DNA of 64,000 bases from the NCBI GenBank assembly GCA_964276515.1, contig OZ193909.1, positions 15,996,001-16,060,000 on the forward strand, read 5' to 3'. Positions within the stretch are counted from its first letter, which is position 1. Every line of letters starts with the position of its first letter. This stretch comes from Gordius albopunctatus (Eukaryota). Both the position numbers and the translations under genes were made by a program. Below the pieces are notes generated by a model that worked only from the letters and a program-made list of their open reading frames with translations, was not told the origin of the DNA and did not search any database. Below are positions 5,396 through 64,000 of this stretch, one piece after another.

Positions 5396-6389
5396 ATAAG
5401 TCCACTATTTGTTGACCAGTGTTATGAAAATAAACCATCCGAGTTCGGGCCTAAATTTTGATGTTAACAGACAATTTTTATAGGTAAAAATAAAATTAAT
5501 AAAAATAAAATCCATCCAAGTGACCATTTTATTGGGGGTGAAAATGTTAGACATAACACGAAAGACTGCGTTTTGTTCCGAAAAACAACAATTAGATGTT
5601 TAGTATGCAATAAAAAAACACACACACAAACGTGGAAAATCAAGTTTGCCGTATAACGTAAGTGTTGAGATTGAAGTAGCCCTGAATGACGATTGAAATT
5701 ATTATATATATAAATTGTGTGAAATACATTGGCTCATCTAATTAACGATACATATGGGAATCTAGTAGTGAGGAGGAAGTAAGATTAAAGTTAAACATCG
5801 TTAAGTTTGCGTTTTTGTCATAATTTTTACAATTAAAGGACTATGTCAAAATTAATAATATTTAAAAAATCGGCAATCCCACAATGTTTAAACTTATATG
5901 AAAAACGTGAAATTATAATACTAAGTGCGCAGTATGATAAATCAGTGGGAATAATCTTGCATCACATGACTCATAAGAGATAGCACGTTATCGTAAGAGA
6001 GTGGTAGTGGCCCCATTGATTGGAGATTTCGTTGAGGGTCGATTCAAAATCGATGGAAAAATAACATTTAAAATCATATTTTTATGTAATCCATATATAT
6101 AATCTTAATTTCATTAAAAAAAAATTGGTGTGGTACGCGTGCACAGTTTCTAAAATGAGGACACAAGGGCACATAATAATTAGCAAGTAACTACAGTATA
6201 CAGTTGAAAGAAAGAACGATACACAAAATGATACAAAAAACACGTAGAGAAACGTACAATGCTGAAGTTTAAATATGTATGGTATAAATATTGAGGAGAG
6301 AAGGTGTATCGCCGTAAGCAACTTGCTGATTTCAATTCGAGCCCGAGCAGCAGCGTTGGCTTTTATTCTGAAAAAATTATTTGGGCACA

Positions 6390-6539
6390 TCAATTTTTAG
6401 GGTAGGTTTGTTGGCGAACGCCAGTGTTAGGGGTTGTCACGTTAGGGACTTGACGCGATTTAATTTTGAACCAGTTGGTTTCCTTGTACAAAAACCATAT
6501 GTTACCGGCCCAGAGTAAGAGGTTGGCGTATCCGAATAT
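6390..6539 (-). CDS. Synaptophysin-like alternative terminal exon B (TM4 + tail)
   Basis: tttgtatcag acceptor, phase 0. IFGYANLLLWAGNIWFLYKETNWFKIKSRQVPNVTTPNTGVRQQTYPKN*, carrying the canonical family motif FG..N..LW.GN.WF.YKET.W. Confidence 0.9.
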   Translation of the reverse strand: MFGYANLLLWAGNIWFLYKETNWFKIKSRQVPNVTTPNTGVRQQTYPKN

Positions 6540-9500
6540 CTGATACAAACAAAAGTAAAATTTAATAGTTTTTATCGATAAATTGCGTAGCGCTTTACAA
6601 TTATCTAGATATTTTTCAAATTACAATTATAGCTTATGCGTAAGGAAATCATGGCCTAAGTCATGTTAAAATGTAAAGGGGACAGTACAGCCATCCAAAG
6701 TAAGGATTAAAAAGACAACGCTTCAGACGCCACAATTTCGAGGTTGGCTTGCCGCGCGGTTTTGGCTAACGCTCTGTACTTGAACCAAATGGTGTCTTTG
6801 TACACGAACCACAACGAAGAACTCCACACAAACGAATTGAATATTCCAGCCATCTTGGCAAAATTTATCCAGTCAACTTACAAAATTACCCTCGAAAAAT
6901 CCGGTTAAAGTCTTAGTTTTTAGAGTATTAAATATCATGATTCTTCCGTTAATAGGGGCGAAATAAAAAATAAATAAAATTATAGCCCTATAGATTAATC
7001 AAATGGTCTATAGGAATAGTATATGAATATAATATATAATAAATTAGAAAATGGCGGGGGAACATTGCCTCAAAAAAGGCTAAATTTGTGGGGGAAAACA
7101 ATTTTCCATCAGAAATCCGAATTATTAATCCGTGTGCGAGATGCTTTTTATAGACCCGTGTAATAATAGAGGCATTCGCAAGATAAACGTGTTAATGATG
7201 AGATAATTATTGACGGGGTATCCACAATATGTACAGGCATAACTTAAAACGATATATATAAGCGAAAACATCGTGAAAAATCCTTTAAATATACATATAT
7301 TTTATTCGCTTTTATATTTTGTGTCTGTTTTTAAGATGTTCCTAACTTCTAAAATAAATATACTATTGAAAATAGCTCAACAACGCTGTAGTATGAAAGC
7401 TAAACTTACGATGGAAACGTTTAGGCTGGCAAAATCTCCGCTGTACTTAGTGACGCACCGTTTTTCGCCTTGGGTGCCGGGGAGGGGCAAGCAATCCGAT
7501 ATGCGAGGTATTATGTGATCGGGATTGGTGTAGTACTTCAGGTCCGTCAAATTTTTAGCCCACGCCGATGTAGAGATGAGCCAAAGCAGGGCGAAGGCCA
7601 TAGTCATTATGAAATCCTAAATCATAGTAAAATGCAGGCTAACTAAATTTACCAATATTTAAAAAATAATTAATAAAATTTGGCTGATATAATTAAAAGT
7701 AAAAAATTATTATTTTTTTTATATATTTTAAATCTGGAAATATAGATGACAACTGCGAGGTGACAGGCAAAAGAGCATCGATGATAACCCCAAGATAAAA
7801 TTTTGCTAAAACCATCACTCTTTAACAATCACTTATTGGCCAAAGTTTAGCCTCCATATATACTATTTTATTACCTTAAATTTTGACAAAATCCTTCGAT
7901 TCACTTTAAAAATTGCCATGTTAGCCTCATCGTGTTAGCTAAATCAAAAGGCGACAATAGAAATATTGTCATTAAAGGAAGCATGAGGGTAGCCAGGGGG
8001 GGGCGGCTACCCCCCTCTAAATCCAAAAATTTGTTGAAAATAAAATTATGGCTGAAATTTCAAAAAATGATCCTTTTGCCCTTCCCTAAATCATTATTGC
8101 CCTATCTAATTCCAATGCTGGCTACAACCATGAAGGGAAATCACAAAAAAGTCAAGTACCAACGTTTAAAAATCAACAGTAGCCAGGGCACGGTAAAAAA
8201 GTCATATTATAAATGGTATTAACGAAAACAATATATTAATTTAAAATAAGATAAAAATTTGCCCTCTCCGGGATTCGAACCCACATCACTAGAGGCATAG
8301 GCCTTTGTAGGAGGGGGGCACAGGGACCCATATCAGTAGAGGAATATGCCCTTGTAGGGGGAGGCATAGGGTAATTAATGTTGACCTAATAAAGCAATTC
8401 AAAAAACGGAAAAAAAATTTCGATTCATAATTCGGCCAATGGTCATCTTTTCATTAGTACAGTAGCCAGGACACGGTCAAAAAGTCATATTATTAATGTT
8501 ATTAACAAGAACAATATATTTATAAAAAATTTTTTTTTGCCCTCTCCGGGATTCGAACCAGCAATTAAGATACATTTTGGAAGGATGGACGGACAACGAA
8601 AAGCGAGCCCATAAATTGCATAGCAATTAATAGGGCTATCAATCGTCAAAAATGTATGAAAGGGAGATTAGCCCGATTGTACACAATGCAAGCTAGTGAT
8701 GATCAAAACCTAGGTCAGGTTTTCCCGAGGTCCAACCTCAGGTCGGTTTCATGTTCGACCCGAACCTTAACCTGAGGTCGATCCCGAAAATCAACCTGAA
8801 AAACCTTCAGGACAATTTTATCCCGAACCTGAAACCCAGATTGACCTCAGGTTAACCTTACAAAAATCTCTTGTTTTATGCGATAAATTTAAGAATAAAT
8901 TTTTATTTTACTTTAACTATTTTCCTTTTTCAAGATGGGTCAAACTTTTCAAATATTCACAATTTTAAATGAAGAAAAAATTTTATAAACATATAGATGG
9001 TGTCATCGAGTAATATACATGTTTAACAATTAATTTAATTTTTATATAAAAAAAATCTTATTTTTTTTTTAAATAATAACCAAAAACTATTTTTTCTTCA
9101 TTTAAAATTGTAAATATTTAAAAAGTTTGATGCATCTTGAAAAGGGAAAATAGTTAAAGTAAAATAAAAATTTATTCTTAAATTTATCGCATAAAACAAG
9201 AGATTTTTATCAGGTTAACCTGAGGTCAACCTGGGTTTCAGGTTGGGGATAAAATTGACCTGAAGGTTTTTCAGGTTGATTTTCGGGATCAACCTCAGAT
9301 TAAGGTTCGGGTATTCTAAAACCTTGGTTTTGATCATCACTAATGCAAGCGAATTAATAAAATGCAGCCTCTAATACATAAAAAAGTAAACATTAACATT
9401 TATTAAACTTTTTAGTATGCCATGGTTTAGTGAGGATTTCTACAACTTTCATATCTTAAAGCCAGTCTTGTTAAGGAGCGGCGCTCATTTTTTCAAAAAA

Positions 9501-12500
9501 AAGCTGGAGCTCCTTTTTAAAATTGAGGAGCGGGAGTAGCTCCTTTTAGGGCTTTTTTAAACATCAATAATATTTGTTAATTAAAATTTAATGAAAATAT
9601 AATTTTATTTAAATTTATTCATTATTAAATGTTGAGCCGAATTTTTTATTGATTTCTCATCTAATCATTTGAATTTTTGGATAGTCGAGTTTTTTTTGCT
9701 CTCAGGAAAGTTTTGGATAGTCGAGATCTTTTTAAAAATGGTTTTAATTATTTTTGGAAAATCAAAGGAGCGGTTATGGAGCGGCACTCCATTAGTTGGA
9801 GCGGGAGCGCTCCTTTTAATATGTAGTAGCGGGAGCGGGAATTCGCTCCTTTTGAGAAGGTAGGAGCGGGAGTCGCTACTTCTAAAAAGGAGCGTTAACA
9901 AGACTGCTTAAAGCAAATACATTATAGATGACGTTATTGATGCTTTAAGCGATAGAATTTATTTCTCAAGAGTGTCCAACATTAATTTTTGAAAATAATT
10001 GATAAAATGCAGCGAAATGAATTGCGGCGTTTGCCTTTTTAATGTGTGCCTCAAACGTAGTCTTGTAAAAACGGCTCGGTTTTGTTCGGTCGACTTTCGG
10101 GTCAACTAAGACTAACGTTCGTTTCTGGTCTGGTTTCTAAATTTCGACTATGCCTACTAGAGGTAGATTAAGCCTAATCAACTAAAACCAAAGGTGAATC
10201 AAACAAAAGTCAGCCACTTTTACAACACGACTCAAACCTAGCTACACCCTTATAAATATTATACTAGTCCCCGGCAAAAATACAGCCGTGTAAGTAAATA
10301 GAGAAATAAGCGTTTAAACATGTTAAGCAAATCGTCACAAGATGAGGCGGTAAAAGAAATTTGCTCCTCACCAACATCGGCAATTTTTCGTTGTCTTCGT
10401 AAATCTTGGTGAAGAAAACGTAGACGATAACAGCACCCAGGGCGTATAGGAAGGCCAAAACCCCTATGGCAACGTAAAATTGAGCGGCGCTCGAATAATC
10501 CCCCTCCAAAAATACGCGGGAGGGGGAGTCGGCAACAGCCTGGCTAGGCCCGGCCGGGTAGAGGTCGGGCGCGAGTTTGGCCCCGTTTTTATCGCAAAGC
10601 GGCAAACTCAGGGCGTAATGATCCAGCCTGTTACTCACAACAGGAATAATTGCAAACTTTTAGGGGTTATACATAATAATTTTCATTAAAGTAAGGCAGC
10701 ACCTGATAAGAGTAATTTAGAGATTAGGTGTCACAAAATGTGAAGCTCATTAAAGCATTTTACAGAATTTTAAAAATTTAATGGCGGATTTGGAGTTGGG
10801 CGAGGATTATTCAGCCCGCACACGATTGGTAACGGCGTTTCAAACTCCAGATAGCTCTATAACTTTCCATTACTTTGGGAAAAAGTAACCTTTTAAAAAT
10901 TGTAGGCGAATCATGGTATAATTTCGTTATTCGGTATGAGCGTTATAATTTTAAATCGTAAATTAAATTGATCCCTCCCCTATTTCTCAAACAATTCGAT
11001 TTAGATAGCCTACGGTAAAAATATTAATGGGCGTGCCTGAGGGAGAGCAGCATATTTAAAATTTTAAAATTTCCCTGACCTAGCAACACCAATAAATTTA
11101 TTTGAATAAAATGGTAAATATTCGCCATTTTAAAATATGCTCTTCCGGTACAATCCCTAACCACACTTGACAAATAACAATCTTGGTATGTTTCATATAT
11201 TCGAAGGCTAAAGAAAAATCTATTAATATTATCGTATAGATCCACTTTCGTAACTTATTAAAAGGGCGCTAAAATCAATAGAAAAGAGTTTTAAAAAATT
11301 GCATAGCAATTAACACGTAAATTATGTTATTAGGGGTTAGCTAGTTCAATACCTTTTTTATTATACAAATAATTCATTCACAAAATAAGTATTGTGTGAA
11401 TTTTTTTGGATTGCGCATATTTCGATATGGCGCATGCCGTTGATGAGCATTAGCAGTCTATTTGGTTAATTTGAATTTTTTTTTTTACATAAATGCAATC
11501 GACGCAAAAATATCTCAGCATAAACGCTTCATATATAAAAGCTTACCAATAATGATTTCACAAAATAATGCACATTTTTGTCCATTTTATTACATTTCGA
11601 GTTTCAAATAAAACTCTATGAACAGGACACCAGGGGAAAGACATAGCTGGGAGCGTACTACAATTTAACGATGATAACTCATAATAGTTGAAGAATCCTT
11701 TGTGAGCTAAAATTAATAAATCTATTGGAAAAAAATTAAGCTAATACAGGTTTAAGCGCCATGTATCGAAATTGTATTTTGGATTTTACGATTTCCATGG
11801 TGATTTTCTGCGTAATATAAAAAAAATTAGTTGAGGTCGTGTGTAGTAGAGGTAATAAATTTTGATATTTGTCTGCAAATTGGTCACGAGGGATTGAAAA
11901 CAAAGTTAGAAAGGAAGATAACGCCAAATTTTCGACCACAATTGATCATAAGTTTTATAAAACATGTAGATAATGTAATTTTAAACGAAATGTGGTTTTA
12001 CGAATCCTCAATCAAGCTATGCCAAATCTCATAGAATAATTTATATTATAAATCCATGTTAATCTGTTATATTATGCAAAATCAATTATTCCATTGGAAA
12101 AAAAGCAATTATAGACTTACAACTAATTAGAATTATGGACCGAAGACCCTAAGTCGGTTGCTATAATTATAATCAATATTCAATTAAAACGAAAAGGGAG
12201 TCTGTGTAAATCTTTACATTTTTCATTGAAAAATAATAGTACGTGAGTTTGCTGGATTGTAAATTTTATGTTTGGCTGCGAGATAAATTTTAGGTTTACA
12301 CAGCTTTTCGCGTCGGGTTTGGGCCATTATTAATTTTTTTGTTATTGGTATTAGAGATCTGCACGGGCCGGCCCGGCCCGCGGGCGAGTACGGACGGGTT
12401 TTGTATCATAAAAATTTTAACGGGTCGGGCCCGGACGGGCCTAAAAATTAATGGAACGGGCTCGGGCGGGCCTGAGATTTTTTTAACGGGCTTGAACGGG

Positions 12501-15323
12501 CCTGAAGTTTTATAAGTGGGCTTAAACGAAACAGAGATTATATAAAAGGTCTTGGAGTTACAAAGGTGCTTAAACATAAAACGATTAGAAAAAACAAAGT
12601 AGATGAAACTATTGAGTTTGAGACAGATTTCGATCTGTTAAAATGGTGGTAAGCCAAAGAGGACAAGTATTATATTTAAAATTAATTTTATCCTTTAATA
12701 GATATTCTAAATTAGCACATTTAGCACATATGATATTATGTATACCGGCTACGAGTGCCACCAGCGAGCGAATTTAAGAAAGGCGAACTCGCCTAAAACC
12801 AGAAATTGTTGATGATTTATTATTTTTACATGATAATTATTGATGTCTTTCTATGAATATGTCAAAAAATTAAATAAAATTTTGTGAAATTTTTGATGAA
12901 TTAGGACGGACGCGGAGTTCGTTTAAAAAAATTTTTAACGGGCTTGGACGGGCCTGAAAAATTTACTGACGGGCCTGAAGTGTTGAAAAAAAATTACGGG
13001 CGGGCCCGGACGCGCCTTGAAATTTTAAAAACGGGTACGGGCGGGCTGACCTTCTAAAAACGGCCCGTTGCAGATCTCTAATTGGTATTGCTAACTGTTA
13101 TAGCCATTCCATGTCGATTGGTCAAAAAAGAGGTTTTCGACGGACTATCGCACAATTTGGGGAATTTTCGGGTGGGTGTAGGTCTCGTGTATTATAGTAA
13201 TTTTTGAATTTTTTTTTATTTTGGCCCAATACTTTTTAAGTTACGGCCGTTCAAAGGGCCAAAATCACCATCGCGCGCGTTTTATTATTTTACCATGTTT
13301 GTCATACTAGTTTTGGAAGTAATGGCGCTATCCTCTTGAACTTTAGTGTAAGTTGTTCATAAATTTTTTTATATCTAAATAATTTGACCAAAAACATCAA
13401 CTTTTGCGGTCAGTTTTTGTGGTCAAATTAGTAAAAAATGATAAAAACCTATTTCAACCTCATATAAAAGCACCAATTTTACAAAACGCGCTCCTTTATG
13501 ACTCATCATAAAATTTCGATCGCCAAAAGTTCAAGACCGGCTACGAGATGGTCAAGACTTCTAAAAATAACATTTTCACAAAAAATATTTCTAGATGGCG
13601 GTATAATCAATTTATTAAAAGATCATATTATGATGTTTGTTTCTTACAGAGGACGTTTGATTAACATGCCCACTTGAAGGTATAGATAGATGAGTGATTT
13701 TACATTTTTTCGTTAAATCTTAAAAAGTATTTAAGTTATATTTTTACCGGTTGAAATTATTCAAATAAGTGCGCAGGCAAAAAATAAGTATCAGCAGCTT
13801 AAGTTGAATAGAAGATAATTTAAAATGCTAAGTTTAATGGTGAAAATAAATTTTAATTTATTTATTGGCAAATCTTTTTAAAGGTTCTAAAGAAATAATT
13901 AGAATTTCTCATTAATATAAAATAGATATTTATGAAATTTTGGAAACCGTACATTTTAAATTAAATTTTTATTAAGGTGTCAAGTAAAATTGATTAAGAA
14001 AATCACCTTGTGCGTGAATAGTTAAGTAGGATTCTCTTGAAATAAAAATATAGACTGGAAATCAGGTACTAATATAGCATAATGGAAAATAAATTTGAAC
14101 AAAATATTAATAAATCATAAAAATTACTGAATTTGGGACTACCCAAGCCAACATGGATGCACATAATGAATTTATTGGAAACACCCTGTAATTGCATTAA
14201 AGACCAAATATATATTAGTATGCTTAAGAAATGCTACATGCTGTGTATTGGTTTTGAGTTTAATGATTAACTTCCAATAACAGTAAATTTTTTATAGGAC
14301 AATGACTTTGAGAAGTATGCATAGCAAATATAATCATTATATAAACCATCCTAACCTTAATTTAACCAACAATTAATTATTTTATAAGATACACAAATGC
14401 AACTTCAAATTATAACAAATCAAGTTATTTTTTATCACAAATATGAAACCTAAATGACTATTATGTGTTTACATAATATTACATCATAAAATAGCTCTGC
14501 TTTAGGCAAAATTCATTTAAATAATGAGTTAACTTTAGCATATAAAGAAGCAACATTTTAAATGCAAATTTAAAGCATTTTAAATGCCTTAAAATCGTAC
14601 TGCAATGTGGGTTACTTACAAATACTTGAAGATTTTTTCCACAAAAAGATATATAAGCAAGTAAAGAAGATTTATGTAAAACATAGATAAAGAAATTAGT
14701 TACAACACAGCAAAAACTAGCTTGACAAACCTTTAAAGAGATATACATAATGCATAACCTGAACATTCATGATAAAGGTGGCAAATATTACCTATAAGGG
14801 TAACTAAACATCCCTTTCATGACTTTTGTATTAGTAGGGCATTTAACTTGAAAGGTGAAGTGAGAGCCATGACTAGTGGTAGTGGCAAAGGCAAATATTG
14901 CCAAAAACTAAGAAAAAAAATTATTGATTAAAATATATTTATACAGCCTATTTTATTTGTATGCAAAAAGATATTGGCACCATAATATACTAAGACAAAC
15001 ATTAAAATAAATTACAATTTGAAGTAATTTTATAAATCCTCTTGGTTCCTTCAAGCTACTTAAATTCCTTTCGTGAATAGCTTGAACAATCTATAAAATA
15101 GAAATGGTAATCAAATAATATATTTAATAAGAAATAATATAAAAATGTGAAAAAAGAGGACATAACAGTGTCTCCTAATGAAGGACTTAAGTCCAATTTT
15201 AAAAGTTCCGTTTCTGGCAGCGATAAATGCTAATTAATAATAATTTTAATTCAACTATCTTAATAATAATGCTGTAAACATAAACACTAAAAAACAAATT
15301 ATATATACTTTAGCGGTATCCAT
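6390..15323 (-). CDS. Synaptophysin/synaptoporin-like MARVEL tetraspan vesicle protein (spliced)
   Basis: Exons 15323-15309 (MDTAK), 15090-15016 (..SLKEPRGFIKLLQI), 14907-14792 (FLAIFAFATT..FSYPYR), 10627-10372 (..GDYSSAAQFYVAIGVLAFLY..), 7616-7410 (DFIMT..SAWAKNLTDLKYYT..FASLNVSI), then a terminal exon 6853-6707 or 6539-6390. All GT-AG and phase-compatible. Motifs are diagnostic of the synaptophysin family. Confidence 0.93.
6707..6853 (-). CDS. Synaptophysin-like alternative terminal exon A (TM4 + tail)
   Basis: ccaag acceptor, phase 0. MAGIFNSFVWSSSLWFVYKDTIWFKYRALAKTARQANLEIVASEALSF*, homologous to exon B. Confidence 0.75.
   Translation of the reverse strand: MAGIFNSFVWSSSLWFVYKDTIWFKYRALAKTARQANLEIVASEALSF
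8177..8631 (-). repeat. Repeat with two ~105-bp direct units each ending in a tRNA-like B-box (SINE/HINE-like)
   Basis: Units at 8177-8282 and 8460-8559 end ttgccctctccgggattcgaacc (minus strand GGTTCGAATCCC). The terminus aattgcatagcaattaa recurs at ~11297, ~47521 and ~52888. Confidence 0.5.
8694..9342. mobile_element. hAT-type foldback MITE with 8-bp TSD
   Basis: TIR tagtgatgatcaaaacc/ggttttgatcatcacta. TSD atgcaagc (8686-8693, 9343-9350). Arms are inverted over more than 200 bp. Confidence 0.92.
9463..9906. mobile_element. Non-autonomous hAT-type element with 8-bp TSD
   Basis: TIR cagtcttgttaa/ttaacaagactg. TSD cttaaagc (9455-9462, 9907-9914). Subterminal ggagcgg/cgctcc repeats. Confidence 0.9.
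12352..13080 (+). mobile_element. Internally deleted hAT transposon with 8-bp TSD
   Basis: TIR tagagatctgca/tgcagatctcta. TSD attggtat (12344-12351, 13081-13088). acgggc subterminal repeats. Broken hAT dimerisation domain FDLLKWW..LCIPATSATSER..RTRLKPEIVDDLLFLHDN. Confidence 0.92.
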
Positions 15324-19599: not shown

Positions 19600-22734
<3,135 letters not shown>

Positions 22735-28645: not shown

Positions 28646-31423
28646 CTATTTATAATCTTTTCCACTAGAATCTGAAATGGATAATTCATCGTATTCCCTT
28701 AATATCATCGGAATCGTGTTGACTATGGGATTTTCTTGTAATTCTGGTTCTTTCAAGAAAATTTCACCCAAATTATCTTTGTACATCTGAAAGTGACTAT
28801 CACGTTTAGCCTCTGTACAAGTTTGTGGATCCAAATTTTTCGTATTTTCCAATTTTATATTGTGTTCTACAAAATTTTCAGACGTCATGTTATTCATGTC
28901 ATAACCGGATGTAGCTAACTCGTCATAGTTGTAATTTTCGTGGTAAATGGGATAAGGTGTGACTAAAGATTCAGTGTATTCCTGACTTCTTACATTATTT
29001 ATATTGTCCGTGTTCAATGAGTTGTTGTTTGATGAGTCAAATGAATGTGACCTCTGATCATTTGTCAAATCATTTTGAAAATTATCACCAAGTTCTTGAA
29101 AAGGAAGATCGGCATAATTATCGGAGATTGAGGAATTGTTCAAACTTTCTCGCACATCATTTTCGATTGATTTAACTTTGATATTTTTTTCTTTTGCTAA
29201 AATATTGTCTTCGCGATGACTTTCATTACCTTCGTTATCGTACACATACTCTGGGCTATAGTTCAAAAACTCTCTTTTAAACTTTGCGGCTAAACGAGAT
29301 GTTTGCCAGTATTTGAAGGCTAATGCAATGGCTACAATAACGAGAATTATTATAAAAAACAAGAGCAAATTTAAAGCAATGTTTGAGCTGTTGCTGGTCT
29401 TCTTAACTCGTTCATCGCGTAATACCTGTTCAGTAGTAATAATATATATCTTTATAGTTGTTTTAGGTTGATTATGCGTCAAAGCGGTTAAAGGTAGATA
29501 GGATTTAGGCTCGCGAGATGGAAAACATAAAGAATTATTTAGAATGAGATCATTAAAAGTTACGAAATTTCCTTTTACGTTTGGCATTGTGCCGCATTTG
29601 TACATACATGTGGAGTTTAATATCATAGAATAATTAGGGAACCATACCAATCCATTAATAGTAACTTCGTTAACTATGGTCATGTTTAGTAGATATTTTG
29701 GCAACTTAATTAAATCCTCTAGAGTACAATTTAGCGGATTACCGATAATGCTCAAATATTTAATTTGATAAAATGTTTGCGGAATGTCCTCTATTTGATT
29801 ATTATGTGCCAACATGTATTTCATTTTTTCCAAAAATTGCATATTGGGTATTGCTGATATTGAATTTCGGGAAACATCTAATATTTCCAATTTATGCAAG
29901 TTGTCAAACGTTCCTGCATTCAAAACTGTTAATAAGTTGTTCGAAACATTTATAGCCCTTAACGCTTCATTGTTTTGAAATGCAGTAGGGGATAATACTT
30001 CTATTTTATTATTACTAATATCTAATGAAATCAATCGATGGCTTTTTGGCATATATTCCGGCGTAAAATATTTAATAGTATTTTCATTGAGGCTGTAGGA
30101 ATGTATATCATTAAAACATTCAAAATATGGTCCTTCAACATCAAAAGTTAGATTATGTAATTTTAAGAAGGACGATATTCGGCATAACTCGCTATTGACA
30201 AAGTTTGAGTCAATTGTGATTTTAATTAAAAAGATTGAATTGTAATCGTAACTTTCACTCAGGTCACTTTGAATGCTGGTTAACCACGTATTTTTACAAA
30301 TTAATGTTTTGATCGAATCTTTTACTTCACATTCTGCGGGAAGTTTTGATGGCTTACAGTGAAGCTTATCTTCAGTTATATTTAAAAGTGACAAGTAGTT
30401 ATATGGCTGTCGTTCATACCTACATTTTGTTTCTTGCACATCTGTTAATTGCTCCAAACTTAGTTTAGCATTAACCCTGGTAAACCATTTAAGATAAGAT
30501 GTTATAAATGGCCTTAAACGACATTTACATGTCAAAGGATTGCCTAATATCGAAAAATTTAATAGTTGGGTTGAGGATATGATATCGCTTGATAAAGTTG
30601 TTATATTGTTGAATTGCAAAAACAATACTGTGAGAGATTCGTAATTTTTTATGTAAAAACTAGATAATTTATTAAAACTCAAGTCTAGTAGCTCTAACGT
30701 AAGCAGAGATTTATCCTTGTACTGGGTTGAGTCGTATTCCACCAATAAATTGTGCTCAACATGCACATGTTTTAGCGTATTAAAGTCCAACAACCAATTT
30801 TCTGGTAAAACTCGAATTCGATTCCAACTTAAATCTATCATTCTTATGTAAATTGAATTTTCAAATATATTGCTAGGAAAAGTCTTTATGGAGTTGTGCG
30901 ACAGATTTACTAGGTCTAGATTAGAAATCGAGGCAAAAGATCGGTCATCTATATATGATATTTTGTTAAATGATAAATCAAATTCGACTACAGCCGACTC
31001 ATTAAAGTAATCCCCTAATATTTTAGGCATATTGCCATTACTAATCACTATGCGGTATAAATTTCTATAAAGCTTAAATTTCTCTTTTATACCATATAAA
31101 AAGTTGTGTTCTTTGATCCTAAGCGTTTGCAAATTGTTATTCTCGATCCACTGGCAATTGATAGATTGCAGGCTTAACTTTGTCAATGGCGGATGGTACC
31201 ATTGAAAATTATTTAAATTCTCGCATGTGGAATTAAAAATTCCAGCTTCCCTTCCAAACGATGGCATGTTATCAATGATGACGCTTTCGAAACTTAACTT
31301 TTTCTGGATTAAAGCTTTCAGTTGACTCAAGGTCGACGAATTATCACACATAAGTGTTGTATCTTTTACAAGACATTGTTGGCTCAAAGCTACTAAAACT
31401 GAAAGAGCATAAAAGAATAACAT
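28646..31423 (-). CDS. Intronless type-I membrane LRR protein (925 aa) with two LRR/LRRCT blocks and no TIR domain
   Basis: Signal peptide, LxxLxLxxN repeats, LRRCT motifs GNPLTCKC and GNPLNC, TM segment LNLLLFFIIILVIVAIALAF, and a ~220-aa acidic/Asn-rich tail. Confidence 0.9.
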   Translation of the reverse strand: MLFFYALSVLVALSQQCLVKDTTLMCDNSSTLSQLKALIQKKLSFESVIIDNMPSFGREAGIFNSTCENLNNFQWYHPPLTKLSLQSINCQWIENNNLQTLRIKEHNFLYGIKEKFKLYRNLYRIVISNGNMPKILGDYFNESAVVEFDLSFNKISYIDDRSFASISNLDLVNLSHNSIKTFPSNIFENSIYIRMIDLSWNRIRVLPENWLLDFNTLKHVHVEHNLLVEYDSTQYKDKSLLTLELLDLSFNKLSSFYIKNYESLTVLFLQFNNITTLSSDIISSTQLLNFSILGNPLTCKCRLRPFITSYLKWFTRVNAKLSLEQLTDVQETKCRYERQPYNYLSLLNITEDKLHCKPSKLPAECEVKDSIKTLICKNTWLTSIQSDLSESYDYNSIFLIKITIDSNFVNSELCRISSFLKLHNLTFDVEGPYFECFNDIHSYSLNENTIKYFTPEYMPKSHRLISLDISNNKIEVLSPTAFQNNEALRAINVSNNLLTVLNAGTFDNLHKLEILDVSRNSISAIPNMQFLEKMKYMLAHNNQIEDIPQTFYQIKYLSIIGNPLNCTLEDLIKLPKYLLNMTIVNEVTINGLVWFPNYSMILNSTCMYKCGTMPNVKGNFVTFNDLILNNSLCFPSREPKSYLPLTALTHNQPKTTIKIYIITTEQVLRDERVKKTSNSSNIALNLLLFFIIILVIVAIALAFKYWQTSRLAAKFKREFLNYSPEYVYDNEGNESHREDNILAKEKNIKVKSIENDVRESLNNSSISDNYADLPFQELGDNFQNDLTNDQRSHSFDSSNNNSLNTDNINNVRSQEYTESLVTPYPIYHENYNYDELATSGYDMNNMTSENFVEHNIKLENTKNLDPQTCTEAKRDSHFQMYKDNLGEIFLKEPELQENPIVNTIPMILREYDELSISDSSGKDYK

Positions 31424-31716
31424 GCAGTCATAACCATAGGACTTCGTGACGTATAGCGACGTTTAGTCAAAGTGCCATCGGTAACCGAATATAACATATA
31501 GATATGTGTACAATTTATATAAGAAATATATTAATATTAAAACATTATTTAAAGAAATTTTCATTGTTGACTCATTCGTTACTAGCTCTACTCAAGTTCA
31601 ATCATGTTAAGCTTTATCATTAACAACCATTGCACAAACTTAAGTTTTGATAAATTTAGAACATCCTGTTCTTTTAAAAGCTCTTATTTTTATTGAAAGT
31701 CCTTATAAAGATAAGC
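31424..31716. promoter_or_regulatory. Putative bidirectional promoter between the divergent LRR genes
   Basis: Only 293 bp separate the two ATGs. AT-rich core tttatataag at ~31514. Confidence 0.45.
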
Positions 31717-32628
31717 ATGTTTTTATTCGCACTCTTTTTCATAACATATTTCTACTATTTTGTCAACGCCGAGTCGGATATTTGTAAAATAGTTGAACCC
31801 CAAATTAAAAATCATTGTAGCTGTGTCTATAATGAATACAATGTCATGTGTCAAAATATAAGACCAAATATGACACGACTTATTGGAAAATATTTTGCGA
31901 ATAAAGATATTATATATAAAAGTATTGTTTTCATAGACGGTAAAATTGGACATATTGGAATAGACACTTTTAATGGCTTAGATACGAAGCGATTGGTGAT
32001 TGATAATGCAAAAATAATCACAATAGCTGCTGACGCCTTCAAACATTGTTGTTACAGCCTACATTCACTCACCTTTGTCAATTCCCTATCCGATATCCCC
32101 TTAGATTTCTTATTCCCTCTACATTCCTTGCAATTCCTCAAATTGAATCAAAACAGAATTACATCTTTAAGAAGTTCCTCTTTACGCGAGAAAAGACAAA
32201 TGTCTAACTTATCGAGCATAGACGTGAGAAACAACGCTTTAGACACTATCAAGATAGACCTGCTCACCACCTTTCCAGCACTCGAAATATTTTTGTTTTC
32301 GGGAAATCCGTGGAGATGCGCTTGTCAACTAAAAAATCCACGCAAAAACGTCCTAAAATGGCTAGCAGGCGTCATGAAAACTAAGCATTTTACGGAAGAA
32401 GAGAAGCACGACTATTCAGAAGCTATCTGCAAATCTCCCGATTGCGGAGACCGATTCGCACCATTCTTCTCTAACGCACTTGATGTATGCCCTAACACCG
32501 TGTACATGGAACTTTTTAACAAGCACACCTACGCCAACATTTACTTCAAATTTGCAATTCTGTTTCTGCTGGTAGTTATAAAAATTGGTCACTCGCTCTA
32601 CAAATCTTGCTATAGTAAGATATCATGA
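31717..32628 (+). CDS. Intronless short LRR membrane-anchored protein (~303 aa)
   Basis: ATG at 31717 starts the signal peptide MFLFALFFITYFYYFVNA. LRRNT-like C..CSC..C, about 5-6 LRRs, LRRCT GNPWRCAC..C, and C-terminal hydrophobic FKFAILFLLVVI. Confidence 0.88.
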   Translation: MFLFALFFITYFYYFVNAESDICKIVEPQIKNHCSCVYNEYNVMCQNIRPNMTRLIGKYFANKDIIYKSIVFIDGKIGHIGIDTFNGLDTKRLVIDNAKIITIAADAFKHCCYSLHSLTFVNSLSDIPLDFLFPLHSLQFLKLNQNRITSLRSSSLREKRQMSNLSSIDVRNNALDTIKIDLLTTFPALEIFLFSGNPWRCACQLKNPRKNVLKWLAGVMKTKHFTEEEKHDYSEAICKSPDCGDRFAPFFSNALDVCPNTVYMELFNKHTYANIYFKFAILFLLVVIKIGHSLYKSCYSKIS

Positions 32629-36331: not shown

Positions 36332-49241
<12,910 letters not shown>

Positions 49242-57165: not shown

Positions 57166-60100
57166 ATGCGCCCGTACAAATAAGCATATTAATCATTTAA
57201 TTTCGGATTAAAGTTAAAATTTAGGTATTTTTTATAATAAAATTAATAATTATTATAAGAGGCACTCAATTTAGGGCCTTCTTTATGATAACGGAGAGAT
57301 GTTCGTTAATGTCCCAGGGTAAATTGGGCAAGATTGTTTTATTTGCATATAGTATCCAACTGTCAATTGGGTAAAAAATTACCGTCAAATTCAAATTTAT
57401 AGAATAGAACATAATGTTATAAATTGGCCAATTCTCATAAAATGTAAATTTTATTTTATATTATGTTGCTCATACTCTGCTAGGAAAGGAATCAAATTTC
57501 AAAGAAAGGGTAACAAAAGGTATCCTGAAAACAAAGATCCTGTTGAAGTAGTCACAACTTTTTTTTCATATATCTTAACATTTTTAAGGTATACTGCAGG
57601 ATTAAGCCAGCAACATCGGAAACTATATGTTGTAAGGTGACTGATTATAACAAAGTATTGCTTTTCCCTCCTGAAAATATAATTAATATTCGTAATGCAA
57701 ACAATAGAGAAGTAATTATATATATATATATTATGAAATAAATTGTTTTTTACATTAATATATGTCACAATTATTGTTTACTAATTCAATTGTTCAGATT
57801 TTGTTTAAAATATATGTAATTCACTTATTCCAAAATTTTAGTGTGAATACACATTTACCAAAGTCTTTGCACCTGAATCTCAACAAAAAGCCATATTTCA
57901 GGATATAGCTAAACCTTTGGTCAAGGATTTAATTGATGGGAAAAATGGTTTGAATTTGTTTAATAATTTCATCACAAAGTTCCTATTATTATATCATATT
58001 TTTTAGATATTTATCACATATTTTTTATTTTGATAAATCAAGGATTGGTCTTTGCATATGGTGTAACAGGCTCTGGTAAAACCTACACTATGAATGGTAG
58101 GGGTAATGATGTAGGAATTTTGCTAAGATGCCTAGACACCATATTTAACACACTAGACAAATACCAAAGTGATCAATATGTAAGAAAAAATTATAAATTT
58201 TATGAGAAATGCTGACCATTTTTATAGGTTTTTATACCAGATCGTAACAATGGCTTTGATATATTGTCACCTCCGGAGGCTGCTTATGAAAGAAAAAAAG
58301 CCATGTCTGCATCAAGCTTAACCAAAATTACATTTACTCCACGGAAACCTTTGTAAATTTTTTTTGTTTAACTTGGTTTAATATCAGAGTCTTAGTAATA
58401 TAAATTAACATATGTCCCTATTTAGAATATATTAATCTTCTTGTCTAAAAAATGTGTATTTTTATATGATTAGGTTTTTAAAGGAAGAGAATTTTAACAA
58501 TCGTTCACCAGATTCAACTATAATTGAAGATGTTCCCGAGGATAATTCTTATTGTGTTTTTGTGTCTTTTATTGAAATTTACAACAATTACATCTACGAC
58601 CTGCTTGAGGATGTGAGCCTCGATCAAATCAACATGAAGTAAACTTGTTTACTAAATTTTTGAAAGATTAGCAAATGTTAATGTTGCTTAAACATGCCCA
58701 AATTATTTATTTCTGTTGCCTATATTTTACCCAATGCCATCAACTAGGCTCTACCCCAAACTCAAGGCATAACTTTTTGAAGCATAATTTTACAAATTAT
58801 TTTAAAGAATGTTTGATGTGTTGCATATTTGTTACAAGTATGCACTGCAATTTAAGGGCTCACATCATGTCTGGTCCTGTCCAACTTCTTGGTTTATAAT
58901 CAAACAAGACTTTGTTGCCATTGGCCTTAAAATAAATTTTTATCAGAAAATATATAAGAACTGCTGTGTAAATTAATTCCTTTGATCCCTGTCTGAGGCC
59001 AAAACTAATTTAATGAATTTTATTTTGCCTTAATATGTCCCCTATCCTTTTGTTTGTGGGTCTTTTTTTTACAATTTTCACTTTTATGTCAAATAAAATG
59101 CATTTTTGAGGGAAATTTGTATATATTATTGTGTATTCCACGACAAGGACTCAAATATCAAAAACGTTGCGCGAGGATAGCCAGCACAATGTGTACGTAA
59201 GTGGGTGCACCGAGGTTGAAGTTAAAAGCACGGACGAGGCCATAGAAGTTCTGTACAAGGGCTTGAGGAAAAAGAGGATGGCTAGCACCGTTTTGAATGC
59301 AGAAAGTTCTAGGTCTCATTCGGTCTTTAACGTTAGACTGGTTCAAGCCCCCCTAGATCATCTGGGAGAATACGTTTTGCAGGTAATTCAAACATTTATT
59401 TATGTATTTATTTATCTTATATATAAAAATGAAACTATGTATGTGTGTATGTATGCCGCCACCAATTTTGGAAAACTACCAGACCGATTTGGCTCAAATT
59501 TTCACAGTTTATTCCTGACACTCCTGAGCATGTTTTAAGATTTTTTCGAGCCAAATCGGTCCAGTAGTTTTCCAGTTTGTTTTATACGTTTTGACGTTTA
59601 ATAGAATGTCAATCAAACGCAACCTCATCGTGTTCTTTGAAAATTTGAATATACACTTCTTTAGTAAAAGTGTATCACTTATAGTATTTTCTAAAACGTC
59701 ATGCGTGTAGGTAGTGTAGTGTGATAAATGAAGCATGTGCTGCGGAAAATGGAAACTTTTTACGTTTTGAAACATTAAATCAAAGTCATTTTTTTGCTTA
59801 TTTTTCACTTCAATTATTATTATAGGACGGTCGTGCCCCTCCTACGTGGCTAAATAAATTAAAAATCTAATTTTATCATTTTTTGTGCGTTAAATAAGGA
59901 GAAAAATGAAAATACTTTTAACAAAGTGACAATAAATGTTGATATATCTCAGTTCTTCGGACATTATTAAGTTCAGAATTAAAAGTTTTATTCAGAAACA
60001 TATAATTATAATTATGATATTGTTTCTCAATTACAAAAAATTAAAAAAAATTGCTTGAAGGGCCAGGGGGCCAACGATTTTTCCCTTGGGGGGGGGGCAT

Positions 60101-63100
60101 GGGGCCAGGTTTTCTCTCTTGGGTGGGCTTGAACCTTGGACACTCTTTAACTATTTGTTTAAAAATTATCAAACTTTATTTTTACTTCAATAACCGCTTT
60201 ATCATCATATATACCCTAAAATTCCAACGTTTGCCGGGTTCATCTAGTAATTAATAAAATTTGCCTTTAAACAAAGTAATATGTATCTTCGAAAATCTTT
60301 ATCTCTATTTATAGTTTAATTTAGGCTTAAAATCATATTTTTCTTGCATGAGAATCAGTTGCTCTATTTATCGCCTATGTCGCCTATCAAATTTTTTTTA
60401 TAAATGAGCATGTGCAACAATAAGGGCCTTTAACTATCTTGAGTGGAATGACATTATTCAATATATATACATTACTCTGCATTCGATTCACATTCAAAAA
60501 TTTTGAATTTATGCATTGTACATTTTTATGGAATTTTTTTATACAAAGAACTGTTATAATGTCTGAACAAATGTCCTTTGACCAGTCTTCTATTATATAA
60601 TTTATATAATGCAGCCATCTCGTATCTAATTCATCTAATACTCTTTGCCATTATTACCTATGTGCAATATAATATTTTTTAAATTAACAACCAGATTTTG
60701 AAAGTTATCACTATTTTTTATGATTGAACCATTTGCAGGATAAATCGAAGATATGCGTGAGTCAGTTGGCACTCGTAGATTTGGCTGGGAGCGAACGCAC
60801 CAATCGGACGCATAACATGGGAGACAGGTTGCGGGAAGCTGGTAAGATTTGATTGATATATTATATAAATAAACAATGTTGTTTATTATTGAAGAAAACA
60901 GAAATCGTGGAAAAAAATTATGGCGTTTTTAAAAAATATATTCGTTGTCGTCGCCGTAGTTCGTGATAGGACTAGACGCTTCTGTGAAAGACTTTCATTT
61001 TGTTTTCGCCGAAAGACTAGCTAATGACCGCTGCTTGGCTTTAATTTTTCTCATCCCGTCCGAGCCCAAATATCATTTTTATTTTTGTGCCCCGACAGAT
61101 TACCTTTTGGCAACTTGTCTAGCTGTTGCTTTATAACGGAAATAATTCTCTACGTGATGAATGATGAGCGTTGCTTACTTTTAATTTTTCTGACCTGAGG
61201 CCAAAGTATTTGTTTATTTTCGTTAATCTTGCCTTTTGACCCCAACCCGAGGCCAAACTACGATTTTGCCTTTAAATTTGCCGTAAACATGGCCAGAGGC
61301 CAAAATCGAATTTTATTCTAGCGGCCAACAGCTTTTTGCCATTTTGGTGCATTAGCATTAAACATACACATTTTTCTCGCAAAAATTCTCGAAGCTTCTG
61401 GTATTTTAAGTAAGCCCAACATTAATAACATGTAAATTATTTTTATGTAAAGACGTTTTACGATTGCATGCCAATAGGGAACATAAATGCCAGTTTGATG
61501 GTGCTGAGGAAGTGCATAGAAATTTTGCGAGAAAATCAGAAGGACCCCACCACGGCTAAAATTGTGCCTTACAGGGATAGCAAGTTAACGCACCTCTTCA
61601 AAAATTACTTTGACGGTGAGGGCAAAGTTCGCATGATCGTTTGCATGAATCCCGATGCTTCGGATTTTGAGGAAAATTTGGTGAGAAAAATTAAGAAATT
61701 CAATAAATGAGTAAAATTTATGGTTTTTTTTAAACTTAGCTTTGAATAGCACGACTAGGGTAATAGTGAGTCAAATAATTCAAGTTTTGCTAAATATTCA
61801 TAAGGGGGGCTGACTAGAGATTTTAGTTTTGTTAAAGAAATGTAATTTTTAAAGTCAAAAATAACATTGACCAGGAAAATATAAGAATAATTATAATTTT
61901 TTTTCCTAACCGCCATAATTTTATAAATTTGCACGGAATCGCAAATATATAGAATTTGGCAATCTGTTTTGGGAGGGGAGGGGGCAGTTTTATGAACCCG
62001 CATTTCCATTTGATTAACTTACTGTCCAACTTTTGATTAAAACTAAGCATTTACCCCGGTAAAAGGAGTCTATCTAAGACATGTATGATTGGATTCCAGA
62101 AATCTCTTATAATTTGACCATCCACATGATAGGCTTGCAATCGTACACATTATAATAACACCAAATCTCTTGCCTATTTCTCAGCATGTTATAAGATTTG
62201 CCGAACTGACCCAAGAGGTCCAAGTGAATAGACCGACGGCTTACAAAGTAGACACGGTGGGTATGCAACCTGGCCGGCGCAAGGCGAACGCTATCATGCA
62301 AGAAGCTAGTAAAGCTACGGAAAAATACGACGAAGAACGGGTCATTTGTGATGGTGAAGTCTTGTCGACACCTAGCGTCACTCCCCCACCCCTGTTTGAT
62401 TTGGGCCCAACCTTGCCCAAATTACAAGTAATATTTGCGAAGAGCTCTTTATAAAATGTAGTTAAAAAACACTCGAATATACAGGATAATTACATACGAA
62501 TTTGAACATATTCTTCTTTCTAATATTTCTAAGTGGGAATTTAGGGATCTAATGACATTTTATACTTTGCAGTGTCTAAAAACTAATAAATAAAATGGCC
62601 GGTTATGGGCCATATAGATTAATTAAAAAACACCTAAAGGTAATTGGTTAATACATCTGATCCTATCAAAATTTAAGTTGTTTCTGGCTATATTATTATT
62701 ATTTAATATTGTTCAAAAGGGTGCTTGTAATATATGCCCCTCGCTTACTAAGATATTTACTTGGATCTTTTAGTAAGTCAGAATCGAACCAGAAGATTGA
62801 TTGCACCTTGGATTTGTCCAAGTGTCTCTTGCTAATGTAGTGTAGCTAGTTAGACAACACGAGGACGTTCTTGTTTTTGTAGTTAGTCTCTTAGATTACA
62901 TTGAGTATCCACCGCTTTTTTAAATTGGTTAAAACATTACCCATTAGTTTAAAGAATTATTATTAGGTGTATAAGAGCTTTTTGAAGGACCTCAGTATTG
63001 GTGGTCTGTATTTTGGCTTGGGAGCTGCTAAAGAATCTAGCTAGATTGACTTATCGTTTAAAGGGGTGATCAACGTGGTTAAAAGTACTTAAAGGAAATA

Positions 63101-63783
63101 GGGATTTTAATGTTTAATTGAAACTAATAATGTATTTAAAAAAATTTGGGCCCCGTCTTATTCGCTAATAAAATCTAAAATGAATAATATTTGTGATAAT
63201 TTCGATTCTTAGAATTTGTAATCTGATGATTAGACGAAGTGAGGGGTATTTAATGTTTTTCTAAAATTTTGAAAAGTCAACTGCTCCCCTATTTATCTAG
63301 GTATTGCGTTGCCTTTAATAGATAATAGCTGTTTTACGTCGGTTTTTTAAAGGGGATATGTAATGCTCTGATCTGATAGTTTAGTTTCTAAAATATAAAA
63401 ATCCATTTTATTTTGTAATTTCAAACAAATTAAACTTTTACATTGGTAAACTATTTAACCACTTCCTTGGGTACGATAAATAATATCGAAAACAGACTGC
63501 ACTTTTATAGCATTACAGTGTTAAGGGTCTTCTAGAACGCAAACTTCATGCATTTTTTCATGTTTTTGGCCCTTAAAATTTTTCTATCTTTTATTGACTC
63601 TACAAAAAATTGATGTTCTAGCTTATCGACGTGGTGGACCCTACGATGTTGTTGTCGCTGGAAAATATTCTCAGTCAAAAGAGTGACAAAATGGCTTCTT
63701 TCCTAGCACTAACCCTATCCAATCTTGACGACCTCCTCAAATCTAACGGGATGAGTGGGGAAGATTTCGAAAAACTCAAAAAG
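57166..63783 (+). CDS. KIF23: Kinesin-6 KIF23/MKLP1/Pavarotti-like protein (3' part beyond window)
   Basis: Exons 57166-57173 (tentative start), 57484-57547, 57589-57711, 57842-57947, 58043-58179, 58228-58352, 58474-58638, 59148-59382, 60739-60841, 61478-61680, 62185-62427 and 63622-63783. Motifs [33 protein letters not shown] and [27 protein letters not shown], plus the long loop-6 insert of kinesin-6. Confidence 0.93.
59415..60247 (+). mobile_element. Non-autonomous Helitron in a KIF23 intron
   Basis: a|TCTTATATATAAAAATG-(tgta)n 5' end and caacgtttgccgggttcatCTAG|t 3' end. Shares both blocks with 22891-23205. Confidence 0.78.
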
Positions 63784-64000
63784 GTTTGCGCCTAAAATAT
63801 ACCTTAAATGAATGATTTTAACATAATAGAGAATTAAATTTGAGCACATAATTACTGATGTGCCAGAATTTTTGGCCAGATAACTATAGTATTTTGGGGG
63901 TAAGTCTCCTTGTTTTAAGGTTCATTTATTGGTATGTAATGATTAAATGCTGCATCCACCTTGTTTAGTGTTTACCTAGAAAATTACGTAGTTTTGTTTT

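Follow-up and report, generated by a model that had tools for sequence, protein, structure and literature searches.

The genome of the hairworm Gordius albopunctatus carries, on the minus strand of a 64,000-nucleotide stretch (assembly GCA_964276515.1, contig OZ193909.1, positions 15,996,001 to 16,060,000; the whole stretch is referred to here as the window), a synaptophysin-like gene that ends in two homologous terminal exons, named A and B. This raises the question of whether the gene specifies two proteins that differ in their fourth transmembrane region (TM4) and cytoplasmic tail, or whether exon A, the upstream member of the pair, is a remnant of a duplication that no longer (or never) served the gene, or one that serves it in some other manner.

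The gene possesses five shared coding exons, amounting to 223 codons and ending at a phase-0 GT donor (Table 1), and their reading frame runs on into both terminal exons. Exon A consists of 48 codons (the first of which is ATG) and exon B of 49 codons, and the predicted A and B forms are consequently 271 and 272 aa in length, respectively. The first-pass annotation had reported two phase-0 homologous terminal exons bearing the motif W..(S/N).WF.YK(D/E)T.WFK, each with its own stop; these features were recovered in both exons, and the junction coordinates it proposed (7410->6853 and 7410->6539) proved to be right. Four hydrophobic peaks were observed in each form, the fourth being weak (1.24 in A and 1.48 in B). 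Additionally, cysteines at positions 53, 80, 196 and 208 provide one pair per luminal loop, all on conserved columns, and presumably these residues pair within their respective loops.

Table 1. Coordinates of the predicted exons and processing signals of the synaptophysin-like gene, in transcript order (positions are those of the window).
Feature	Position	Strand	Basis or signal
Coding exon 1 (predicted; start codon, 5 codons)	15309..15323	-	Phase-0 GT donor; match to the Gordionus N-terminus
Coding exon 2 (start of TM1)	15016..15090	-	AG/GT sites, open frame
Coding exon 3 (remaining TM1, first luminal loop)	14792..14907	-	Frame and sites, with homology
Coding exon 4 (luminal loop 1, TM2)	10372..10627	-	Pfam MARVEL match, E 9.5e-06, a fragment under the curated cut-off
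Coding exon 5, the last of the shared exons (TM3, luminal loop 2 and the beginning of helix 4)	7410..7616	-	Phase-0 GTAAGT donor
Candidate branch point YTRAY (TTGAC), about 20 nt 5' of the exon A acceptor	6872..6876	-	
Exon A: derived duplicate terminal exon; remaining TM4, 23-residue tail, stop	6707..6853	-	AAG acceptor
Candidate variant poly(A) hexamers GATAAA (6576) and ATTAAA (6566), between the exon A stop and the exon B acceptor	6561..6576	-	
Exon B: canonical terminal exon; remaining TM4, 24-residue Pro/Thr/Gln tail, stop	6390..6539	-	CAG acceptor
Likely poly(A) signal AATAAA, directly after the exon B stop	6362..6367	-	

The closest protein among 1.84 billion representatives searched was synaptophysin-like protein 1 of another horsehair worm, Gordionus sp. 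(XP_065324086.1), to which the B form is identical at 181 of 268 aligned residues (68%). Exon 5 alone displays 79% identity to this protein across the matched stretch, its MARVEL match (E 0.006) being a fragment under the cut-off, and a look-up of exon 5 in the Atlas returned only MARVEL/SYPL1-type leads, all of them <0.9. The named matches of the Gordionus protein are synaptophysin-, synaptoporin- or SYPL-like; its predicted structure matches the synaptophysin fold with an E value of 1e-15, compared with 9e-3 for synaptogyrin, and the model superimposes on solved synaptophysin chains (PDB 9B8O and 9BRA) with a TM-score of 0.90-0.91. Furthermore, the hairworm gene shares with vertebrate synaptophysin, synaptoporin, SYPL1 and SYPL2 the four-helix MARVEL fold, the four luminal cysteines and the TM4 signature. 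The gene is thus a member of the physin family, closer to the physins than to the synaptogyrins, and is not vertebrate SYP proper. In the Gordionus model helix 4 spans residues 216 to 242, so that the terminal exon encodes approximately three quarters of this helix together with the whole tail.

With respect to the relationship between the two exons, the TM4 block of the Gordionus protein is identical to exon B at 23 of 25 positions and to exon A at 11 of 25, and exon B matches TM4 of rodent synaptophysin with an E value of 4e-07, while the match of exon A to the same stretch is weak (E 0.3). The earlier description of exon B as canonical is borne out by these values, and the difference in similarity to Gordionus indicates that exon B is best regarded as the ancestral type and exon A as a derived copy. 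Across their first 25 codons A and B align without gaps, sharing 11 of 25 residues and 42 of 75 bases, and this gap-free homology begins precisely at both acceptors. The BLOSUM score of exon A against exon B is 78, the runner-up among 6157 AG-preceded window frames reaching 12, and a family PSSM identified no TM4 blocks in the window other than A and B. Both exons are covered by contigs of two public sequencing runs, which belong to one study (possibly the source of the window itself) and display a DNA pattern in that introns are covered and repeats are very deep; no splice junction came from them. As none of the differences listed for the main contigs falls inside either exon, the duplication is not an assembly artefact. 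No alignment beyond chance was detected between the tails, the upstream flanks or the downstream flanks of A and B (p 0.15-0.76). Synonymous sites between the exons are saturated (pS 0.75, pN 0.37; base differences by codon position 10/8/15), which marks exon A as an old copy. The terminal exon is therefore present twice in tandem as the result of an old duplication. A second open frame across exon A was without homology and was taken as chance.

The residues that exon A has kept point to selection acting on the protein. All seven columns conserved at a level of at least 99% in 89 family blocks (G3, N6, W10, W15, F16, K19 and T21) are retained, four of which had served in the pattern that gathered these blocks. 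In a neutral simulation the same outcome was obtained in 3 of 42,668 runs, the mean being approximately two of seven; these runs are the ones among 180,000 that matched the observed 33 +/- 2 base differences (31-35 of 75), with indels uncounted, and about 15% of them were without a stop. An independent alignment of 56 sequences has G3, W10, W15, F16, K19 and E20 as invariant TM4 columns, of which exon A retains five, the sixth (E20) having changed to D. Additionally, of 3536 intron windows of 23 codons without a stop, just 0.1% reached the codon score of the exon A tail, the GC3 of which (0.60, against 0.55 in B) is exon-like. The retention of all seven columns, set against the neutral runs, argues that exon A has been under protein-level selection for most of its history.

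The copy is nonetheless a divergent one. Retention followed column conservation with a p value of 0.03, which became 0.17 once the anchored columns were dropped, and the near-invariant columns F2, N13 and E20 are altered in exon A. Against the family PSSM, exon A scored 28 and exon B 71, the TM4 blocks in 79 loci ranging from 30 to 87 (lowest 29.7), and the hydrophobicity of TM4 in exon A is near the bottom of the range (2 of 93 worse). The small residues of exon A at columns 2, 7 and 13 recur in divergent natural physins (L030, L034 and L072), which suggests that the changes at these columns are tolerated.

Acceptor strength was scored on the basis of 33 acceptors which had been inferred manually in the window's myosin and synaptophysin genes, and on this small, hand-picked training set the acceptor of exon B scored 3.2 and that of exon A -4.55. 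Just two of the 33 inferred true acceptors lie below the score of exon A, a score that is reached by half of 295 intronic decoy AGs. The AAG triplet itself is normal in the window, as it is found at five of the 33 inferred introns. The candidate branch point upstream of exon A constitutes weak evidence, since a YTRAY-type motif also precedes 13 of the 33 inferred true acceptors. Donor-like sites are present on the minus strand at 6890 (score 4.3) and 6882 (score 0.9), at distances of 36 and 28 nt ahead of the acceptor of exon A; these lie near the candidate branch point and might dampen the use of exon A. A micro-exon ending at either of these sites was rejected, since none of the 20 inferred myosin introns is shorter than 39 nt and intron 5 held no suitable upstream acceptor for an in-frame homologous micro-exon.

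As regards transcript ends, the 167-nt spacer between the stop of exon A and the acceptor of exon B contains ATTAAA and GATAAA, without AATAAA; AATAAA was similarly absent within approximately 300 nt of the stop in all three of the other genes checked. No stable RNA structure was predicted over exon A, the spacer and the exon B acceptor (z +1.99). An A-type protein was not found among longer proteins or proteins of similar length in word-based searches, which are weak in that they need shared 5-residue words.

The explanation that best accommodates these observations, to which we assign a probability of about 0.65, is that the gene gives rise to two spliced isoforms through competing 3' splice sites that would swap most of TM4 together with the tail. 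Joining of the exon 5 donor to the strong downstream acceptor would produce the exon B transcript as the default form, while joining to the weak upstream acceptor would produce the exon A transcript, likely a minor or regulated form. The products would be two four-helix vesicle proteins with 223 residues in common, differing in most of TM4 and in the entire cytoplasmic tail. Because each exon carries its own stop, the A and B proteins would be mutually exclusive without special machinery, and neither transcript would have a junction downstream of its stop. The A transcript would either end at the spacer hexamers or continue as far as the AATAAA at 6367, with exon B then forming part of its 3' UTR, the odds being approximately even.

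If both forms are made, the swap would alter regions that have been linked to v-SNARE binding in human and rat synaptophysin. Column 12 is Gly in exon B and in 74 of the 89 family blocks, and Ser in exon A and in four of the 89. This column aligns with mouse G218 in the rodent synaptophysin match and, as we infer, with human G217, a disease site in TM4 that has been modelled at the VAMP2 interface (PMC4558601). The occurrence of Ser in four family members means that the change at the G217 column may be neutral. Columns 3, 7 and 11 of exon A are Gly, Ser and Ser, forming a small-residue stripe, and columns 7 and 11 are located on the variable (lipid) face, the variability moment not being significant (p 0.23). 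In the rat, residues 219-244, the first 26 of the tail, have been reported to hold a synaptobrevin-II site (PMC7948965). Rat residue 219 corresponds to column 19, which places most of this region within the exon that is swapped, and the rat residues essential for synaptobrevin binding are conserved in neither the A nor the B tail. A single-sequence fold prediction for exon A returned one long helix (pLDDT 90, pTM 0.50), to which little weight is given as isolated peptides often fold in this way.

The two tails differ in kind. That of exon A is proline-free and predicted to form an amphipathic helix (hydrophobic moment 0.75, p 0.04), and is unlike the Pro-rich coil of exon B. It carries a YxxΦ motif 4-12 residues past the conserved Lys and terminates in Φ-x-Φ, two features that were each absent from all 142 family tails (a set rich in fish). 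Both YxxΦ and Φ-x-Φ are read as sorting-like motifs, and YxxΦ frequently arises by chance. The tail of A had previously been set apart as basic, a distinction which does not hold, as it carries four K/R and two D/E residues and the tail of B five K/R and no D/E. The long Tyr/Gly/Pro/Gln repeat tail of vertebrate synaptophysin is indeed absent, the A and B tails extending for 23 and 24 residues after WFK; this absence is ordinary rather than distinctive, the median family tail being approximately 22 residues (n=142). In the mouse, the interface with synaptophysin has been described as being formed by luminal portions of the V-ATPase subunits e2 and a (PMC11269182), and the luminal loops, which provide this contact in rodents, would be identical in the A and B forms. 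In view of the Ser at the G217 column, the small-residue stripe and the amphipathic tail with its motifs, altered v-SNARE binding or sorting would be expected, with the A form then engaging the v-SNARE differently and being directed to another vesicle pool. The first-pass annotation had proposed that the isoforms differ in vesicle sorting or synaptobrevin binding, to which the change at the G217 column and the swapped tail region lend indirect support. That A and B differ in v-SNARE handling or sorting is a tentative proposal, and we lean somewhat against it.

Several other explanations of exon A have to be weighed against the production of two functionally distinct isoforms. Both isoforms may be made and be near-equivalent in function, the swap altering mainly the 3' UTR, mRNA stability or tissue level; this possibility overlaps with the preferred reading, as the splicing step is common to both and it is the consequence that differs. 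Natural physins with the small TM4 residues of exon A (columns 2, 7 and 13) are in keeping with near-equivalence, as is the report that neuromuscular junctions of worm and fly show little phenotype when the physin family is lost (PMC6519982), while tails as unlike as a Pro-rich coil (B) and a Pro-free amphipathic helix with sorting-like motifs (A) are not, and we consider it rather unlikely. A further reading is that exon A was long used as an alternative exon and has lately fallen out of use, leaving a fresh pseudo-exon with a decaying acceptor. The decoy-level acceptor, the several altered near-invariant columns with a PSSM score at the bottom of the range, and the full-length Gordionus proteins, which are B-type only, would all follow from such a loss; however, the 48-codon frame is intact, the tail, which cannot be aligned to that of B, is still coding-like in codon use and GC3, and the AG and a branch-like motif are still present. 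Moreover, regulated exons typically possess a weak proximal acceptor, and recent disuse is judged to be unlikely.

Two explanations remain. According to one, an old local duplication left exon A behind as neutral sequence that was never functional, in line with the unalignable flanks and tails; this is largely refuted by the conservation of the seven columns, as neutral decay to 33 of 75 differences leaves about two of the seven residues and a frame that is open in some 15% of cases, and we regard it as scarcely credible. According to the other, exon A is expressed (also) alone: translated from its first codon, by way of an internal start or of a transcript that retains the intron, it would yield a micropeptide of 48 residues and one helix, acting in competition with TM4 of the full-length protein or as a complement to it. 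Such a peptide would account for selection alongside a weak acceptor, Met is present at the first column of exon A in 1% of the family, and the adjacent myosin gene seems to have an internal first exon. The bases at -3 and +4 of the ATG are A and G, as in the myosin and catchin-like starts; of 2222 ATGs in the window, 236 share this context. Conversely, ATA to ATG requires one transition and the acceptor AG sets two of the context bases, the retained residues are family-invariant and would be expected to pack in a four-helix bundle, and seven ATGs lie upstream in the intron. Both the existence of a micropeptide and its proposed action on TM4 are accordingly rated as very unlikely, and competing splicing of exons A and B is retained as the preferred reading.

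The distribution of the arrangement was assessed among 79 metagenome loci from other organisms. In 12 of these an AG directly precedes TM4 column 1, the same intron position as in the hairworm gene, which indicates an exon boundary of long standing and wide occurrence. The first-pass annotation had suggested that other invertebrate synaptophysin loci be searched for a duplicated TM4 exon; among the metagenome loci, a second TM4 exon was present in none of the 12 that bear the intron, whose flanks cover 0.3-9 kb and none of which is a known hairworm. The only one of the 79 loci with two TM4 blocks (L057) was set aside as two whole tandem genes rather than an exon duplication; these synaptophysin-like genes, at 72-870 and 1698-2480 of one metagenome contig, are apparently intronless. 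The Gordionus protein cluster comprises three proteins, two of them B-type and one a 72-aa fragment, and it contains no A-type member, although the Gordionus genome was annotated with RNA-seq.

Vertebrates vary TM4 and the tail by means of paralogous genes, while the hairworm-type gene would hold two versions within one gene. Substitution of tandem duplicated C-terminal exons is a described class (Martinez Gomez et al., PMC9741552), in which each mRNA uses one of two homologous 3' coding exons in tandem and, as here, the core residues are kept; C-terminal swaps are reported to represent 77 of 236 human tandem duplicated exon substitutions, and terminal ones often to affect transmembrane helices (PMC9741552). 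Features of this class that are seen in the synaptophysin-like gene are adjacent homologous exons of the same phase behind one donor and core residues under purifying selection. The events in that study differ in that use of both exons is annotated, the synaptophysin case being a predicted one, and its main text names no synaptophysin-family gene. Among molluscs, the Liolophura RefSeq isoforms X1 and X3 likewise possess alternative C-terminal tails from one physin gene; however, these diverge only past WFK, so that TM4 is common to both and the tails are not duplicates. Among the titles and abstract openings listed by a literature search (subscription journals being mostly outside its reach), none described a physin gene with a duplicated TM4 exon, and no publication within its reach paired Nematomorpha with synaptophysin. 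The initial view that the arrangement is undescribed thus has to be narrowed: the general class is well described, and it is its occurrence in a physin gene that was not found in print.

Other features of the window were recorded in the course of this analysis. Within the myosin heavy chain gene, tandem duplicated exons of equal phases at 47977-47863 and 47269-47176 on the minus strand encode the P-loop, the next helix and loop 1, and match the mutually exclusive cluster-2 of scallops and Daphnia; the presence of a tandem exon pair in this gene was counted in favour of the A/B reading of the synaptophysin-like gene. A 200-codon Gly/Ser/Asn/Tyr-rich frame with an ATG in good context lies inside the same gene at 40494-39895 on the minus strand, its phase-0 GT end being just ahead of a rod exon near 39716, and has the appearance of an internal first exon from which a headless rod protein of the catchin/myorod type would start. 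Many introns are very short in the region 36600-48000 (minus strand), with 12 of 20 inferred myosin introns measuring 39-49 nt, and one near 37190-37110 on the same strand appears by eye to begin with GC instead of GT. The upstream neighbour of the synaptophysin-like gene (19600-22300, minus strand) has exons resembling NKAP, an identity which we assume from the C-terminal motif. Long, apparently intronless frames at 28649-31462 (minus strand) and 31678-32625 (plus strand) stand head to head with some 200 nt between them and, labelled by eye, look like leucine-rich-repeat membrane proteins, and exons of a kinesin-like motor gene, also labelled by eye, occupy 59100-63800 on the plus strand.

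The class of splicing mechanism proposed here is an ordinary one, and what it probably adds is a second, unannotated isoform. If true, this isoform would be found in an organism that does not lend itself easily to experiment, within a poorly studied phylum that steers the behaviour of its hosts, no link between gene and behaviour being drawn here. A broader proposition, which we put forward as speculative and rather improbable, is that hairworms diversify synaptophysin by way of a lineage-specific duplicated exon that exchanges the helix facing synaptobrevin together with the sorting tail, the resulting natural chimera separating V-ATPase contact through the shared luminal loops from v-SNARE handling, in its boldest version with exon A acting as a micropeptide as well. 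The job of synaptophysin is still debated, and the A and B forms, if both are produced, would constitute a natural pair with which to ask whether TM4 and the tail set synaptobrevin binding and sorting while V-ATPase contact is held constant.
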